Both the position numbers and the translations under genes were made by a program. A stretch of DNA of 64,000 nucleotides from Pseudomonadota bacterium (GTDB lineage Bacteria; Bdellovibrionota_B; Oligoflexia; Oligoflexales; RGVZ01), in assembly GCA_041178085.1 (NCBI GenBank), contig JBEGVZ010000043.1:1-64000 (forward strand), in the 5' to 3' direction. Below are positions 27,798 to 33,892 of the stretch, in pieces (the stretch's first letter is position 1; each line of letters starts with the position of its first letter). The notes beneath the pieces are model-generated. The model made no database searches, was not told the origin of the DNA, and saw only the letters and a program-made list of their open reading frames with translations.

Positions 27798-28256
27798 GTG
27801 TTCAAGCTGCGTTGTGAAAAGGGCTATGAACCAGTCTACATGACGCAGCACAGCGCTGGCGCGGACCTCAAGGCGACGGAAGCAATGACAATACCCCCGG
27901 GGGCAGTAGCCGCTGTACCCACGGGGGTTTTCATTTCCGGCGTCGAATGGGACAAGGTGCCCGCAGGACTGATCCCGGAGCTCCAAATCCGTGCAAGGTC
28001 TGGCCTGGCCTTCAAAAAACGAATCATGCTCGCCAACGGCGTCGGCACCATCGATGCCGACTACCCGGAAGAAATCAAAGTCCTCCTCATCAACATGGGG
28101 GATCAGCCCTTCGAAATCTCTGCAGGCGACCGCATCGCCCAGCTGGTGCCCGCACTGGTTGCCCGCCTGGAGCTCGCCGCAGCCCAAACGGAGAAGCAGA
28201 GAACCGGGGGTTTCGGCTCCACCGGTGTCGAGGCTGCCTCCAAGGCCCGGATCTGA
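27798..28256 (+). CDS. dut: dUTP diphosphatase
   Basis: AGADL, RSGLA, GTIDADY, GDRIAQL, RTGGFGSTG. Confidence 0.95.
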   Translation: MFKLRCEKGYEPVYMTQHSAGADLKATEAMTIPPGAVAAVPTGVFISGVEWDKVPAGLIPELQIRARSGLAFKKRIMLANGVGTIDADYPEEIKVLLINMGDQPFEISAGDRIAQLVPALVARLELAAAQTEKQRTGGFGSTGVEAASKARI

Positions 28257-28316: not shown

Positions 28317-30650
28317 ATGGGCAAGGTATGGGCTCCATCCCGTTTGATGTGGACGCATTTTGCGTTTATCCTTCTGGCTGCCGGAAGCCTGTTCTACCTG
28401 ACCCAGAACTGTGGTCGCCTGGGGGGCGCAAACACCAAGGATATCGCAACCCGTGACCGGCTCAAGACGGGGCTTTTTTCACCACAGCCCAACATCGACC
28501 TCGTGCAGACAGAAGTCGCAAGGAAGATGACTCCGGAACAACTCGCGGCAAGGGCCGGAATCAAGCTGGAGAGGGAACACCACCTGGATAACTTCTCTGT
28601 GGTGATGGCCCACGATGGCGAACAGATCCTGATGCTCGAAAAAGTCGGGATGTATCCCCAGCCACTCGCTTCACTCGACAAGGCAGGCAAGGTCAATGTC
28701 TGGACATTTCAGGTATTCGCGAACAAGGAAACAAGAGCCCAAGGCACCGCCTGGGTGAAGGTCCCTTCCGGCATGCCTCCTGCCGTTTATGTCAGCGAAG
28801 ATGGCAACCAATCCAATTTGTACTTCATGCGCCATCCCACAAACGCATCCGGTCGCAAGACGCCAGCCATCATCAACATGCTGAACCACGCAATCACGTC
28901 CAACGGAATGGTGCTCTACAAAGCGGGCAACGTGGCGTTTGAAGCAAAAACCAACATGCCGGTGATGACCTACATCCGCGTTGCGGAAAAAATCTGGCGG
29001 GTGAAAGGCGTGTACTCGGACCGAAACATACAAAACGGCACGGTATTCTGGACGCCCGATTTCAAAACTTATTTCAGCAAGACTCCGGGTGGGTCTGATG
29101 TGGTGGAATGGCGCACCCAGGATGACAATTCCATCGATGTGGTCAGGCGTCGGGGAATTCGTGAACTGGAAATTCCCAAAGCGGTCGAACTTGCAGTCGC
29201 AGGGGGCAAGGAAGCGATTGATTCGGGCATCAAGCGGACGTCTGCGCTTGGCTTCGACGAACTAGCACCGGGACCACGTGTGATCCCCGTGTATCAGGGC
29301 AGGACGACATTGCCAGTAAACCAGCGCAAGTTCCGCCTGGGACTCGCAGAGGATGGGAACCCGGATGACGGTTTTACAGACCCGACGGCACAGTTCACCA
29401 GCGACAAAGCCCCAGCACTTGAACTTGGTGGCGGACAGGTGGAACAGTCCCTTCCCGGATCAACACTCCAGCTTCGGAACCAGAACAATGGCGCATGGAT
29501 GAACGTCAGGGCACTCAAATCAGATCCGATCTTCATCAATCGGGGAACGCTGAACTCGTTTTTTACTGGTAGCAACGAATACGTCGGACGCGACGAAACC
29601 TATGAGATCCTTACCGCTGATGGCTCACCGACAGGTCAATACATCCGGCAGCAATGGTATCCATCCATGGGTCTGAACAGCGCATATTCAACCCAAAAGC
29701 ACGTAAGCCTGAATGAGCTGGATGCAGAATTGGCCCGGACCCAGGAGGGCCGCGATGAGCGTTTGCGCGCCCTGCATGAGCGCAATGCAGAACAGCAGGC
29801 GCAAAGCGAGGCCGCCCTGGCTGCAGGGGCCAAGGCCGAAAAGGATTTTCACAAGGCGCTGCAAGCCGCTCCAGCAAACATCGCCATCGGTACTGTAAAG
29901 GACACGTTCAAGGTTAATGGACTTGGCAACAAGGTGCTCGCGGATGTGGCCGGCGAGGGAACAAGACAGGCACTGGCCGCAAGCACGACCGCCGTGCTGA
30001 ATTATTCTCTTGGCGACACCGGGATCGATGCGACATCACAACTCGATGCCTCCAAGATCGTCACATCTGGAGTCAACTCACTGGTCAAGAACGGTGGCCT
30101 GAAGGACGCTGGAAAAGAACTCGGATTCAATTTTACCGCCTACCAGAAATCCAATCTTGGTGATTCTGTCCTGTCATTCCAGCAAGCCCAGGTTGCTGGC
30201 GGTGCCGTCCTTGGCTCAGGGGTCACAAAACTCTCCGACGGTCTTGTCGTGCGCCCCCTGGTTTCGGGCAATGATCCAAACGTTCCCATCGAATTTTTCA
30301 AGACAGGTGTCGATACAACCAAGGAAATCGTAGTCGGGTTGCTACCGACACCGCTCAGTCCAGGGGCTGCGCTGGTTGCAAATGTCGCCGCGGAAGAAGC
30401 CAAGTTATTGGCTGTTGGCGGCGACGCACTGCGAAGCAACGTAAACGCAGTCAATGTGGTGCAGCAACAAGCCGCAACCCTTACACGGATCGCGAACGAG
30501 ACCGTTGGCAAAGGCCAGGGCGAAATTCAGGATTTGCGCAGCCAGCTTGCGGATCGTCGTACTGAATTGCAACAAGACTCACCCTCGCAAGGACCAGCAA
30601 GTCAGCAAAACGACTCAGGTTACGATGAGGATCAATCGGGAGACTATTGA
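28317..30650 (+). CDS. Hypothetical 777-aa exported protein or lipoprotein
   Basis: Long ORF with an AGGAG RBS. An N-terminal hydrophobic segment ends LTQNC. The N-half is beta-rich; the C-half is Gly/Ala-rich helical with coiled coil. Confidence 0.75.
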   Translation: MGKVWAPSRLMWTHFAFILLAAGSLFYLTQNCGRLGGANTKDIATRDRLKTGLFSPQPNIDLVQTEVARKMTPEQLAARAGIKLEREHHLDNFSVVMAHDGEQILMLEKVGMYPQPLASLDKAGKVNVWTFQVFANKETRAQGTAWVKVPSGMPPAVYVSEDGNQSNLYFMRHPTNASGRKTPAIINMLNHAITSNGMVLYKAGNVAFEAKTNMPVMTYIRVAEKIWRVKGVYSDRNIQNGTVFWTPDFKTYFSKTPGGSDVVEWRTQDDNSIDVVRRRGIRELEIPKAVELAVAGGKEAIDSGIKRTSALGFDELAPGPRVIPVYQGRTTLPVNQRKFRLGLAEDGNPDDGFTDPTAQFTSDKAPALELGGGQVEQSLPGSTLQLRNQNNGAWMNVRALKSDPIFINRGTLNSFFTGSNEYVGRDETYEILTADGSPTGQYIRQQWYPSMGLNSAYSTQKHVSLNELDAELARTQEGRDERLRALHERNAEQQAQSEAALAAGAKAEKDFHKALQAAPANIAIGTVKDTFKVNGLGNKVLADVAGEGTRQALAASTTAVLNYSLGDTGIDATSQLDASKIVTSGVNSLVKNGGLKDAGKELGFNFTAYQKSNLGDSVLSFQQAQVAGGAVLGSGVTKLSDGLVVRPLVSGNDPNVPIEFFKTGVDTTKEIVVGLLPTPLSPGAALVANVAAEEAKLLAVGGDALRSNVNAVNVVQQQAATLTRIANETVGKGQGEIQDLRSQLADRRTELQQDSPSQGPASQQNDSGYDEDQSGDY

Positions 30651-30665
30651 TCGTGCAGGCCGCAT

Positions 30666-32120
30666 TCAGGCAACAAACCGTTTTATGTCTTCAAGATTGA
30701 TGTGATCAGTGAATGTTTTGCCATAAAAAGCCTCAACGATGACTCCACTCTCATCAATCAAGAAGTGTGACGGTAGCTGACCGAACTTGCCATCGATGGA
30801 ATCCTGCCTGAAATTCTTGAAGAACGCCCTGATCAGAGTCAGAGCTGTTTTTGGGGTGAAAGCCGCCAATGAATCCTGCCGGGTCTTGAAAGCCCGGTAT
30901 AGCTTCCGCTCCCGGTCGGCTATCATTGGAATTCCTGCCGCCCGGAGCATTTCCGAAGTTGCGCCGCACCTCGAATTCTCAAACTCTTCTGGCGACGATT
31001 CATAGACAGCAATCACGAAAACACCGCGTTCCTGCGCCCGGCTGATGACTTCTTTCAATCCGTCGAGGTGAAGCGCACAAAGCGGGCACGTCGCATACCG
31101 ATAGAATATAATCCAGGCCTTCCTGCCAAGAATTTGCGCTGGATCAAACAAGCTTCCATTACTAAGCAAACCGTTTACCTCAGGCGCAACCTCACCGGGG
31201 ACAAGGGGTGTCGACACAATACCGGCCCCGTCGTTGAAGCTGCTGAGAAACCTGTCCGCGATGCCTTCAAGCTGCTTCAACTCATCATTCTGCCTGAGCC
31301 TGAATTGACGCCGCTTGCCGTTGATGGAGTCACTCAGGAAGTTTTCGAAGGCCCTGACCGGTCCGACGATCTGGTGGCTCAAGTGAACACCGGTAAAGAA
31401 AAGCACGACGAAGAAGGCCGCACTCACGCTGGCGTAGATTGCGATAAAACTGCGAACCAATTGCTGGGCAGATTCGAAGGGCAGAGACTGAACCTGGGAC
31501 ACCAGTACCGTAACATACGTGTATGAGACCGCGCCCGCAATCAGGCCAAAACAGACACCGGCGGCCAGCAACTTCAGACAGTACCTGGTTTGAAAAGAAG
31601 GATCTATCCACTTGCGCCCCCGCCGTTGCTCGACCGGGTATAGCAATTTTCCATTGGCCAGCCAGGAAACAAGGACCATACCAAGACCGACCCACTGCAG
31701 CACATCAGCAACGTTGAAAACCCCTGAGTAAAATCCGCCTGCATGGATTTGCATGAAATCCACAACATGGCCACGCATGATGCGGTCAAGGACATTGCTG
31801 ATCATGGAGCCTGCGAGAAGGCTTGTGCCAAATCTCAAGGCAGGAGAATAAATCGGCAGGAAATACTGAATGACCAGCAACGCGAACAACAACAGACCTG
31901 CCAGGCTTGATGGCAGCACAACCGTATAAATCCTGTCCAATTCCCTGAGCGAGCCCAGCGCGAAACCCTCGTTCGCAAAAAAGAAAAAAGAAATATTCGG
32001 GAAGTGAACCGGACTTGTAATATCCATCGCCAGAATCTTGGTTGCCTGATCGAGGCAGATCGCCGCGAAGAACGGCAGCGTGACGTACATGACCCAGCCA
32101 CGTGCCGTCAGCATGATCAA
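30666..32120 (-). CDS. lspA: Fusion of signal peptidase II (LspA), two TM helices with a HAMP-like linker, and a peroxiredoxin-like (AhpC/TSA) CxxC domain
   Basis: DQATK, NEGFA, SNVLDR, GHVVDF, FNVAD; then SHQIVGP..LRQNDEL; then FYRYATCPLC..PSHFLIDESGVI. Confidence 0.82.
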   Translation of the reverse strand: MIMLTARGWVMYVTLPFFAAICLDQATKILAMDITSPVHFPNISFFFFANEGFALGSLRELDRIYTVVLPSSLAGLLLFALLVIQYFLPIYSPALRFGTSLLAGSMISNVLDRIMRGHVVDFMQIHAGGFYSGVFNVADVLQWVGLGMVLVSWLANGKLLYPVEQRRGRKWIDPSFQTRYCLKLLAAGVCFGLIAGAVSYTYVTVLVSQVQSLPFESAQQLVRSFIAIYASVSAAFFVVLFFTGVHLSHQIVGPVRAFENFLSDSINGKRRQFRLRQNDELKQLEGIADRFLSSFNDGAGIVSTPLVPGEVAPEVNGLLSNGSLFDPAQILGRKAWIIFYRYATCPLCALHLDGLKEVISRAQERGVFVIAVYESSPEEFENSRCGATSEMLRAAGIPMIADRERKLYRAFKTRQDSLAAFTPKTALTLIRAFFKNFRQDSIDGKFGQLPSHFLIDESGVIVEAFYGKTFTDHINLEDIKRFVA

Positions 32121-33892
32121 CCATCCGCCATTGAATCAAGCGCTTTTTCCAGCATGGGGTGCTCCCCAATGATACTGGTAAGCTGGTTCACTGCGCGAAT
32201 TGCTGCGGGTCGGTCAGGACAGGCAAGCAATGTCTGGGTGAATGCAACCAAGGCAGCCTCATTGATTCCGGAACTCCGGTCCTCCGACACAGAGCGCCCA
32301 AGCCAGTGGAGGGCCTCCTCATGAAGATCGAGCTTTCGGTAGACGGCTCCAATTCCCGAGCATGTTTCCAGGTCAGCAGGATACAGGGCATGGGCACGCC
32401 GGAACAAGTCAAGCGCCTCCTGGTACGAATGCACCGCAAGGGCAATCTGGGCGAGCGCCTTGTAGCATTTTGACGCCTGCTGGCTTTCTTTACTGGAGGC
32501 ATCCTCAAATGGAGTCCCCGCCAATGCAGCCAGTGCAGAACGGAATGCATCGGTGGCAGACTCAAGGTTTCCAGCTGCAAAAAGAGCTGTGCCTTTACAA
32601 GCATGCAGGCGTGACACAATGTCGCCTGCCGGTGGTGCCAAAAGAAGAAGATGTTCGACTTCATGCAGGACTTCATCCGTTCCCTGCCTCATCCCTGGGG
32701 ACTCCAGGATGGATAGACGGTCATGCCAGGATGGGGCGGCCGAGGTCTGACTCGTAACTGGTTGATTTTCGTGTTCGGTGGAAACCAGCAGCGAACTGAA
32801 AATCCCGTCAAACTCAATTGCCGCCCGTGCATAAGGACAAGGATCTGCCAGCAGCGCTGGACCGTCGCTCCGCCGTTCAAAAGTCTTGAGCAGGCGTGCA
32901 AGCGCCATGGCTGAAAAATCCATCACTGTAAACCCGGAACTCCCTGCCATGTCACACTGGCCGGCAGCAGGCGACAACACGACCTTGGTTCCCGAAAGAG
33001 CGGCAAGCCTTGCCAGATGAAGGACAGAGGACGACTGTCCCGGCTCTGCTAAAAACCAGAGATCTGAACTGGCAACCAAGTCAAATGCGAATGGAGTTGT
33101 ATCCTGGTGCAGGAAGCGAAAGTTTCGGGCAACACCAAGGTCTGCGATCAAATATTTAAGTCGTTCCGATCCCTCCCGTGGAGTCGCGACCACAACAACT
33201 AGATTACTTATATCAACGGCGCTTGTTGATATATCTCCATTCCTGAGCACGGATTGCAGTGCCCTGGCGAGGTTGCCGGCGACTCCAGAGGGATCCGAGG
33301 ATCCCTCGTACAACATGACGTTTGCAGAGTCCGCAATACCTATGTGCCGCCGGAATCGGGCGCGGCCGGATTGCGCTACAGACAGCACCAAAGCCCTGTC
33401 TGGGGCAAATGGCATTTCCCGCACCCGATCAACCGAATATCTCTCAAACTCAAGAGCCTCGATCGTCCTGCGATCCAAGGTCCACACGACATCGCTCCTG
33501 CCCAGAATGTCGTGCCGGATCGCGCGGATGTTTGACCACGAATCGAAGATGTGAGGCGCTGTCTCAAAAGCAATGCAATGGAATGGCGTATCACTCTTGA
33601 GGCATGCACGGAGGGCCTGAAAAGACGCGAGGTTTTCTGAGCCGGCAGCAACGACCAAGTCGACTCCTTCAAGCTGCCTTTCAAGGCCGGTCATGTAACC
33701 AGGCTTCACGGGATCTGATGCATATATCGCCATTCCGATTCCGGCTTCTCGAATGAGAGGCGACACCGATGATTCAAATGCATGCAAGCGAACTTCATGC
33801 TGCAATGCGATGCGCGCAAAGCTGATGAGCGGCCATGTCTGCGCACCGTTGCCCGCCACCAGCGCAATCCTTTTGCATCCTGCAAATCCCAT
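32117..33892 (-). CDS. Glycosyltransferase-like (GT-B) protein with C-terminal TPRs
   Basis: The N-terminal alpha/beta region resembles GT4 (RFRRHIGI, LVASSDLW). The C-terminal helical repeats have a TPR pattern. Confidence 0.55.
   Translation of the reverse strand: MGFAGCKRIALVAGNGAQTWPLISFARIALQHEVRLHAFESSVSPLIREAGIGMAIYASDPVKPGYMTGLERQLEGVDLVVAAGSENLASFQALRACLKSDTPFHCIAFETAPHIFDSWSNIRAIRHDILGRSDVVWTLDRRTIEALEFERYSVDRVREMPFAPDRALVLSVAQSGRARFRRHIGIADSANVMLYEGSSDPSGVAGNLARALQSVLRNGDISTSAVDISNLVVVVATPREGSERLKYLIADLGVARNFRFLHQDTTPFAFDLVASSDLWFLAEPGQSSSVLHLARLAALSGTKVVLSPAAGQCDMAGSSGFTVMDFSAMALARLLKTFERRSDGPALLADPCPYARAAIEFDGIFSSLLVSTEHENQPVTSQTSAAPSWHDRLSILESPGMRQGTDEVLHEVEHLLLLAPPAGDIVSRLHACKGTALFAAGNLESATDAFRSALAALAGTPFEDASSKESQQASKCYKALAQIALAVHSYQEALDLFRRAHALYPADLETCSGIGAVYRKLDLHEEALHWLGRSVSEDRSSGINEAALVAFTQTLLACPDRPAAIRAVNQLTSIIGEHPMLEKALDSMADG

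Follow-up and report, generated by a model that had tools for sequence, protein, structure and literature searches.

A single open frame of 484 codons on the minus strand of the analyzed window (the whole stretch of 64,000 nucleotides) encodes a protein in which a signal peptidase II (LspA) paralogue is followed by a module of two transmembrane (TM) helices with a HAMP-like segment and by a SelL-like CxxC domain (Table 1). The plus strand of the same interval contains stops throughout. The TTG start codon overlaps the stop of the upstream gene, and in the alignment Met3 is the position where most relatives of the protein begin. The end of the gene lies 15 bp from that of a convergent gene for a 777-aa protein.

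Table 1 Features of the locus. Positions are those of the window.
Feature	Position	Strand	Basis
dUTPase gene, left flank of the two-gene insertion	27798..28256	plus	Pfam, comparison with congeners
Adjacent convergent gene, 777 aa, predicted lipoprotein and proposed substrate	28317..30650	plus	genome signal scan, homologues
Polar lipobox T-Q-N-C (Cys32)	28401..28412	plus	alignment with homologues
Whole gene, 484 aa: signal peptidase II paralogue, 2TM-HAMP-like module and SelL-like CxxC thioredoxin-fold domain	30666..32120	minus	ORF, Pfam, relatives, structure model
Thioredoxin-fold domain, aa 305-484, with R341-x3-C345-P-L-C348 and invariant Pro450	30669..31208	minus	Pfam, NCBIfam, alignment, structure
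Basic cytoplasmic linker, two membrane helices and HAMP-like helix-connector-helix, aa 160-300	31221..31643	minus	hydropathy, profile comparison
Cys181	31578-31580	minus	cytoplasmic start of the fifth helix
LspA (Peptidase_A8) domain, aa 1-158	31647..32120	minus	Pfam, residue comparison, structural match to 5dir_A
Catalytic Asp139, then Gln142-Trp143 paralogue signature	31692..31706	minus	tree alignment, three-part set
Catalytic Asp121 (VVDF)	31758..31760	minus	invariant in 30/30
Glycosyltransferase-like/TPR gene, right flank	32117..33892	minus	Pfam, comparison with congeners

In Pfam searches with the 484-aa protein, Peptidase_A8 scored 69 bits over aa 18-153 (cut-off 25) and AhpC-TSA scored 46.8 bits over aa 309-463 (cut-off 26). 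Both domains were present in 29 of the 31 matches of a homologue search, at 38-78% identity over full-length relatives, and Asp121, Asp139, Cys345, and Cys348 were invariant in an alignment of 30 sequences. A contig from another sequencing run (X2, 30341-32036) covered both domain junctions without gaps. The two-domain matches and this junction-spanning contig rule out a misassembly or a lost stop, and the one continuous three-part ORF described in an earlier sequence-only reading is real; every motif quoted there was found in the translated frame. An AlphaFold model of the protein had a pLDDT of 81 and a pTM of 0.50.

The signal peptidase domain and its housekeeping counterpart

The LspA domain keeps 13 of 14 residues given as conserved among LspA proteins in the available part of PMC6952399, the exception being Gly102 of S. 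aureus LspA, which corresponds to Ser105 here. In a structure comparison the modeled domain aligned with 5dir_A over 151 residues (Z 16.2, rmsd 3.5) and showed the four-helix fold. The PF01252 score, the catalytic Asp pair, and the predicted four-helix membrane fold with its beta-cradle place the domain in the LspA family, and the complete LspA part with both catalytic Asp motifs that had been read from the sequence was thus confirmed. Both catalytic Asp residues are kept in 40 of 40 three-part proteins and in 100 of 105 other members of the family described below. Cleavage before a diacylglyceryl-Cys is the likely activity predicted for the paralogue.

The domain nevertheless differs from housekeeping LspA. 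In a tree of 61 LspA domains, the 35 fused domains separated from the 26 canonical ones with a support of 99, the tree having been calculated with a quick method and containing two long branches that join near this split. Within the same set, position 142 is Gln in 28 of the 35 paralogues versus Ile or Val in all 26 canonical domains, and Gln142 was found in 41 of 41 three-part proteins. Position 106 is Ala or Gly in canonical LspA versus Ile, Met, or Val in the paralogues, and the pocket motif shifts from GAA in the former to G-F/A/V-I/M in the latter. On the model of the housekeeping equivalog (TIGR00077) the 484-aa protein scored 47.4 bits, below the cut-off of 73.95, and a short LspA encoded elsewhere in the genome of the window (G000:C85) scored better. 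The separate lspA for which a search had been suggested therefore exists. A higher-scoring short LspA was likewise present in all six fusion genomes of the window's phylum and in five of five Bdellovibrionales carriers, that is, in all 11 carrier genomes checked, which rules out the three-part gene as the sole or housekeeping lspA.

The middle module and the CxxC domain

Hydropathy indicated two helices in addition to those of LspA, at approximately aa 181-207 and 225-250, preceded by a linker with seven Lys/Arg residues. The termini of LspA are cytoplasmic and lipoboxes are processed at the outer face of the membrane, according to the available passages of PMC8689077. Since the C-terminus of LspA is cytoplasmic and two more helices follow, the predicted location of both the HAMP-like part and the CxxC domain is the cytoplasm, on the side of the membrane opposite to the Asp pair, as the earlier reading had expected for the CxxC domain.

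The assignment of the linker to HAMP held at the level of likeness and failed for HAMP proper. Pfam HAMP matched neither the 484-aa protein nor any of 13 fused segments, and HAMP was absent from the 25 families listed, of 54, for 75 members. Four of four stand-alone relatives of the module, in contrast, matched PF00672 (best E 2.5e-6), and a comparison of the module with five kinase- or chemoreceptor-type HAMPs by hhalign reached a probability of 70% (E 3.9e-5), against 0.35% for a reversed control; the value rose to 97% when three relatives of the module were inside the template set. A fold search with the middle module alone gave WalK as the top match at E 0.35, none at E ≤ 0.001, and otherwise generic helical matches. 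The fused HAMP-like segment appears to have drifted below Pfam detection. Six further 2TM-HAMP module proteins are encoded in the genome of the window (contigs C95, C67, C19, C60, C10, and C97). They are mostly small and without an output domain, and relatives have several copies per genome.

The best NCBIfam match of the CxxC domain was the SelL-related redox protein NF040769, which it matched over nearly the whole model at 54.3 bits, below the cut-off of 120; scores on the AhpC and BCP models were far under their cut-offs. In structure comparisons the domain was closest to AhpE (5id2_A; Z 16.6, rmsd 2.3, 147 aligned) and Bcp1 (Z 16.3), and it also matched prostamide/PGF synthase (9us9_A; Z 14.5). 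The peroxidatic motif of peroxiredoxins is PxxxTxxC, and its place is taken here by the invariant R341-x3-C345-x2-C348. All 46 proteins that carry the domain together with the module keep the CxxC as RxxxCxxC together with the invariant Pro450. The former description as peroxiredoxin-like is hence correct with regard to the fold, as indicated by AhpE and PF00578 (46.8 bits), and incorrect with regard to the catalytic motif. CxxC domains of the same SelL-like kind form the C-terminus of two Ser/Thr protein kinases (P0100 and P0139), and from its fusion to kinases elsewhere we conclude that the domain behaves as a mobile module.

Distribution of the protein family

Among 176 proteins collected, with the best 150 of 3373 matches of a search of cluster representatives listed, 147 combined LspA with the middle module. 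Their C-terminal parts differ: in 41 the CxxC domain follows, in 98 the chain stops within 50 residues of the linker (some of these may be fragments), and eight have other tails. Three of the latter (P0064, P0105, and P0143) consist of LspA, the 2TM-HAMP-like module, two CxxC-type motifs, and a SAM methyltransferase. One or both catalytic Asp residues are gone in two of these three fusions, and such Asp-less forms are candidate pseudo-protease sensors.

Nearly all named loci are labelled as Bdellovibrionota or its subgroups, a few having vaguer or older labels, and the Atlas concurs. Cultured B. bacteriovorus strains carry the two-part form (L028, L039). In the window's phylum, five of 104 genomes contained a three-part frame and one (G001) a two-part frame, and 53 of 161 genomes of the Bdellovibrio phylum contained the full core of LspA and module. 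A different LspA fusion of 907 aa, with about 740 residues after an LspA-like N-terminus, was observed at L021:6936-9659 (G071:C4). Its tail, judged by eye, resembles TPR repeats and a lytic transglycosylase, and a lost stop is possible in this case.

Lipobox type and presence of the paralogue

The 777-aa product of the adjacent gene matched no Pfam or NCBIfam family. Its N-terminus consists of a hydrophobic stretch followed by T-Q-N-C-G, which departs from the canonical lipobox [LV][ASTVI][GAS]C as defined in the available part of PMC8689077. A scan of the 3.0 Mb genome of the window with a home-made signal-peptide filter, used in place of a trained predictor, found 99 canonical signals versus one QNC signal, which was that of the adjacent gene, and this result was unchanged at three thresholds. 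The genome also contains a few boxes with a single polar residue at -1. In four of five congeners the site is empty and the dUTPase gene directly abuts the glycosyltransferase-like/TPR gene, from which we conclude that the QNC gene and the fusion represent a two-gene insertion. The sequence-only reading was silent on this neighbor, whose QNC lipobox suggests that the paralogue exists for reasons of substrate specificity.

A QNC gene was located within 1.4 kb of the fusion at seven of eight distinct three-part loci (the window, L004, L005, L006, L007, L011, and L017). At the eighth (L003), a contig of 3.5 kb, no QNC gene was seen. The two-part gene of G001 also adjoins one. These neighbors belong to at least three unrelated protein families, one of them a DUF4331 half, and share only the signal. 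At two loci (L006:6499-7989 and L007:6434-7891) DUF4331 is divided between two genes, of which the one for the second half carries a QNC signal of its own; a HupE/UreJ-type gene and the three-part gene lie beside the pair.

The lipobox type was then compared among homologues. Homologues of the 777-aa neighbor occurred in eight of 104 genomes. The box was QNC in all three genomes with the fusion (G000, G058, and G072), and at the same Cys residue -1 was G, A, or S in seven of seven copies from five genomes without it. For a second family, picked for flanking the paralogue in another group, 60 loci were read. At the 15 loci from fusion genomes, residue -1 was polar in 12 of 14 readable copies (11 called by script and one, FQNC, by eye where the script had picked an earlier Cys), small in two, and uncallable in one, the genomes being kin and 11 of the polar copies possibly representing one event. 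At the 45 loci from fusion-less genomes, it was polar in one of 36 copies and small in 35, and nine were not called.

Genome-wide patterns were consistent with this association in part of the genomes. The DNA pattern for QNCG matched 30 times in G001 versus 0-6 times in each of the other 103 genomes, and 11 of 13 checked sites in G001 were signal peptides. In the Bdellovibrio phylum, the 34 genomes with the closest two-part form had 2-33 matches to [FY]QNC (median 12; two genomes had just 2-3), whereas the other 19 fusion genomes had 0-4, which is the background, and 108 fusion-less genomes had 0-4 except for G300 with seven, none of which was a signal peptide. In G105, nine of 20 checked pattern sites were real signals, and a random 400-kb sample of this genome contained 14 canonical signals and no QNC signal. 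All these comparative counts come from kin genomes rather than independent events and may represent perhaps four to five origins.

The flanks of the two-part genes differed between groups. Only one of 56 Bdellovibrionales two-part loci (L023-L078) had a QNC gene in its flank; hence, for these forms the QNC link is genome-wide only. L008 and L009 had no QNC gene in the flank either. Among 20 loci from the 19 fusion genomes with background counts, 12 had a gene with a polar box nearby (FNHC, YTHC, YNQC, FNQC, YTQC, QNC, and similar), frequently just upstream within an operon, whereas eight had none. A genome-wide search for the DNA pattern [FY][NT][HQ]C was too noisy and did not separate the groups. 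A conserved operon surrounds the two-part gene at L130:5291-12173 and L137:7635-12495. It encodes a weakly PSCyt2/DUF1549-like protein and another whose start is twin-arginine-like, together with two polar-box lipoproteins, of which one contains CxxCH motifs, and a barrel-like protein that also carries CxxCH.

Single polar residues at -1 also occur without the paralogue, as in VINC of G075 and LIQC of G042, which rules out that Asn at -1 alone requires it. Ordinary LspA thus probably tolerates some single polar residues at -1, and, as far as the compared signals go, the signature of the class linked to the paralogue is polar residues at both -2 and -1. Fourteen VWA loci had FQNC at one and canonical boxes at five. 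A link to the Bd0875 adhesin was not established, since its lipobox is not printed in the searched passages and supplements of PMC11003981.

Function of the paralogue

We consider it probable (roughly 70%) that the paralogue is a signal peptidase II dedicated to lipoproteins with polar lipoboxes. Its substrates would be polar at -2 and -1, with QNC here and NHC, NQC, THC, and TQC in relatives, and in the genome of the window the 777-aa neighbor is the probable substrate. This reading would start from two observations, namely that the paralogue clade is distinct from the short LspA kept by the same genomes, and that polar-lipobox genes flank the paralogue and the lipobox type co-varies with its presence. 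As the paralogue travels with secreted proteins bearing a polar signal, these proteins likely form a separate lipoprotein class. Lgt would lipidate the Cys, ordinary LspA would cope poorly with the polar box, and the altered pocket, with Gln142 in place of Ile, Ile/Met in place of Ala at 106, and G-F/A/V-I/M in place of GAA, would admit it. Gln142, located one turn past the second catalytic Asp, would help to accommodate polar side chains. The 2TM-HAMP-like module would likely dimerize or anchor the enzyme. In the least certain step, the cytoplasmic CxxC domain would be a later, optional add-on confined to one clade, which may tune the enzyme via Cys181 or act independently.

A dedicated peptidase leaves the retention of the HAMP-like module unexplained. 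Conceivably, although we regard this as unlikely, Bdellovibrionota would have a second lipoprotein maturation pathway with an address code of its own, in which a dimer of LspA and HAMP-like module alone would read polar lipoboxes and so allow release of one lipoprotein class on a signal. In the clade of the window the signal would be the cytoplasmic redox state, passed from the CxxC domain via Cys181 and then the HAMP bundle to the protease site on the far side of the membrane, and in another clade the protease would have decayed to a sensor that feeds a methyltransferase.

The mechanism favored before, in which the CxxC domain senses redox conditions and gates a general lipoprotein signal peptidase via the HAMP linker, or else maintains the lipobox Cys in reduced form until lipidation, now appears quite improbable. 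It is in line with the universally kept CxxC and with a fusion that is stable across the identity range given above, and Cys181 occurs in 36 of 41 CxxC-bearing members versus 28 of 106 others, a contrast that is one of 18 clade-specific positions and confounded with clade. We take this enrichment as a weak hint of redox control and as a lead only. However, the CxxC domain is missing from 106 of 147 members, and with 41 carriers and 98 almost tailless proteins, redox gating is not the core function of the family. The domain also behaves as a mobile module, and its predicted position in the cytoplasm, away from the Asp pair and from a lipobox processed at the outer face, fits poorly with protection of the lipobox Cys. 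The co-variation of lipobox type and paralogue would be left unexplained. Redox gating could, in turn, sit on top of a peptidase dedicated to polar lipoboxes.

HAMP domains normally relay a signal from the membrane to a C-terminal output. Accordingly, the LspA domain might be an input sensor for prolipoproteins, signal peptides, or LspA inhibitors, from which the HAMP-like segment relays to exchangeable cytoplasmic outputs (the CxxC domain or the methyltransferase) or to partner proteins. The 41 CxxC and three methyltransferase tails, two of the latter without the full Asp pair, would suit such a role, and LspA3/4 of M. xanthus are thought to regulate myxovirescin levels according to the available part of PMC8689077. 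We nevertheless judge it distinctly improbable, as the 98 members that end at the linker have no output, 140 of 145 members have kept both Asp residues, and the fused HAMP has diverged beyond recognition by Pfam.

Still less probable is that the paralogue is a backup LspA, or one that resists inhibitors (globomycin or myxovirescin), and acts on ordinary substrates; the distribution of lipobox types would then reflect shared ancestry. Additional lspA copies have been described in Streptomyces and Myxococcus (PMC8689077, available passages), many of the scanned genomes contain two short LspA copies, the pocket changes could reduce drug binding, and kinship inflates the co-variation counts. This explanation does not predict the unrelated adjacent QNC proteins in varied arrangements, the two-gene insertion, or the two exchanges of lipobox type, and the flanks listed showed no sign of an antibiotic cluster.

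It is similarly very unlikely that the pairing is right and the chemistry different, with the polar box escaping Lgt and the paralogue cleaving before an unmodified or differently modified Cys: QNC does depart from the canonical lipobox, which serves both Lgt and LspA (PMC8689077, available passages), and no Lgt paralogue tracks the fusion, but homologues have QNC in some genomes and a canonical box in others, with the Cys in the same place, which suggests that the same lipid anchor suits both, and the conserved LspA residues are kept. A matching Lgt paralogue was not supported, as at least two Lgt-like matches were obtained in five of five genomes tested, including the fusion-less G074. The second, divergent Lgt-like gene of the window's genome (L150:1465-2178, G000:C6; 55 bits) has Ser where the His of the HGG motif of Lgt, as given in the available part of PMC8689077, is expected.

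Relation to known systems and implications

With LspA/SPase II (PF01252; 5DIR, 6RYO/6RYP) the paralogue shares fold, Asp pair, and conserved residues. It differs by its score below the TIGR00077 cut-off, its own clade and changed pocket motifs, the added 2TM-HAMP-like module, its co-occurrence with a short LspA, and its tie to polar lipoboxes instead of the canonical one. LspA1-4 of M. xanthus and the extra lspA of Streptomyces are likewise SPase II paralogues beside a housekeeping copy; in contrast to the family studied here, they are associated with antibiotic clusters and can rescue an lspA-depleted E. coli from which lpp has been deleted, and the available passages of PMC8689077 mention neither a fusion nor a separate lipobox class for them.

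The middle module resembles stand-alone 2TM-HAMP proteins and the TM-HAMP part of kinases and chemoreceptors (PF00672) in its helix-Pro-helix-connector-helix after a membrane helix, and its stand-alone relatives also match the TM-HAMP regions of CtpM, WalK, MtrB, and NarQ models. Here, however, the module stands behind a protease, usually without an output domain, and is too diverged for Pfam. The CxxC domain resembles SelL-related and PRXL2-type proteins (NF040769; 9us9) in its best NCBIfam match, its RxxxCxxC motif, and its structural similarity to 9us9_A. It differs by the score below the cut-off, the equal or higher structural scores of peroxiredoxin folds, and the fusion to a membrane protease. 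The largely open-access literature searched, mostly by title and opening of the abstract, contained no description of the paralogue or of QNC lipoboxes, and within it the three-part architecture appears to be undescribed, as previously suspected.

Lipoprotein maturation is taught as one lipobox and one LspA. If true, a paralogue for a second class of lipoboxes would add a new level of sorting to this process. Tools that demand G, A, or S at -1 would miss polar-box lipoproteins, by pattern counts roughly at least 10 per Bdellovibrio genome and more in G001. The matched pair of enzyme and signal would reveal how LspA reads positions -1 and -2, which bears on the design of LspA inhibitors, and is a possible orthogonal tool for lipoprotein display.
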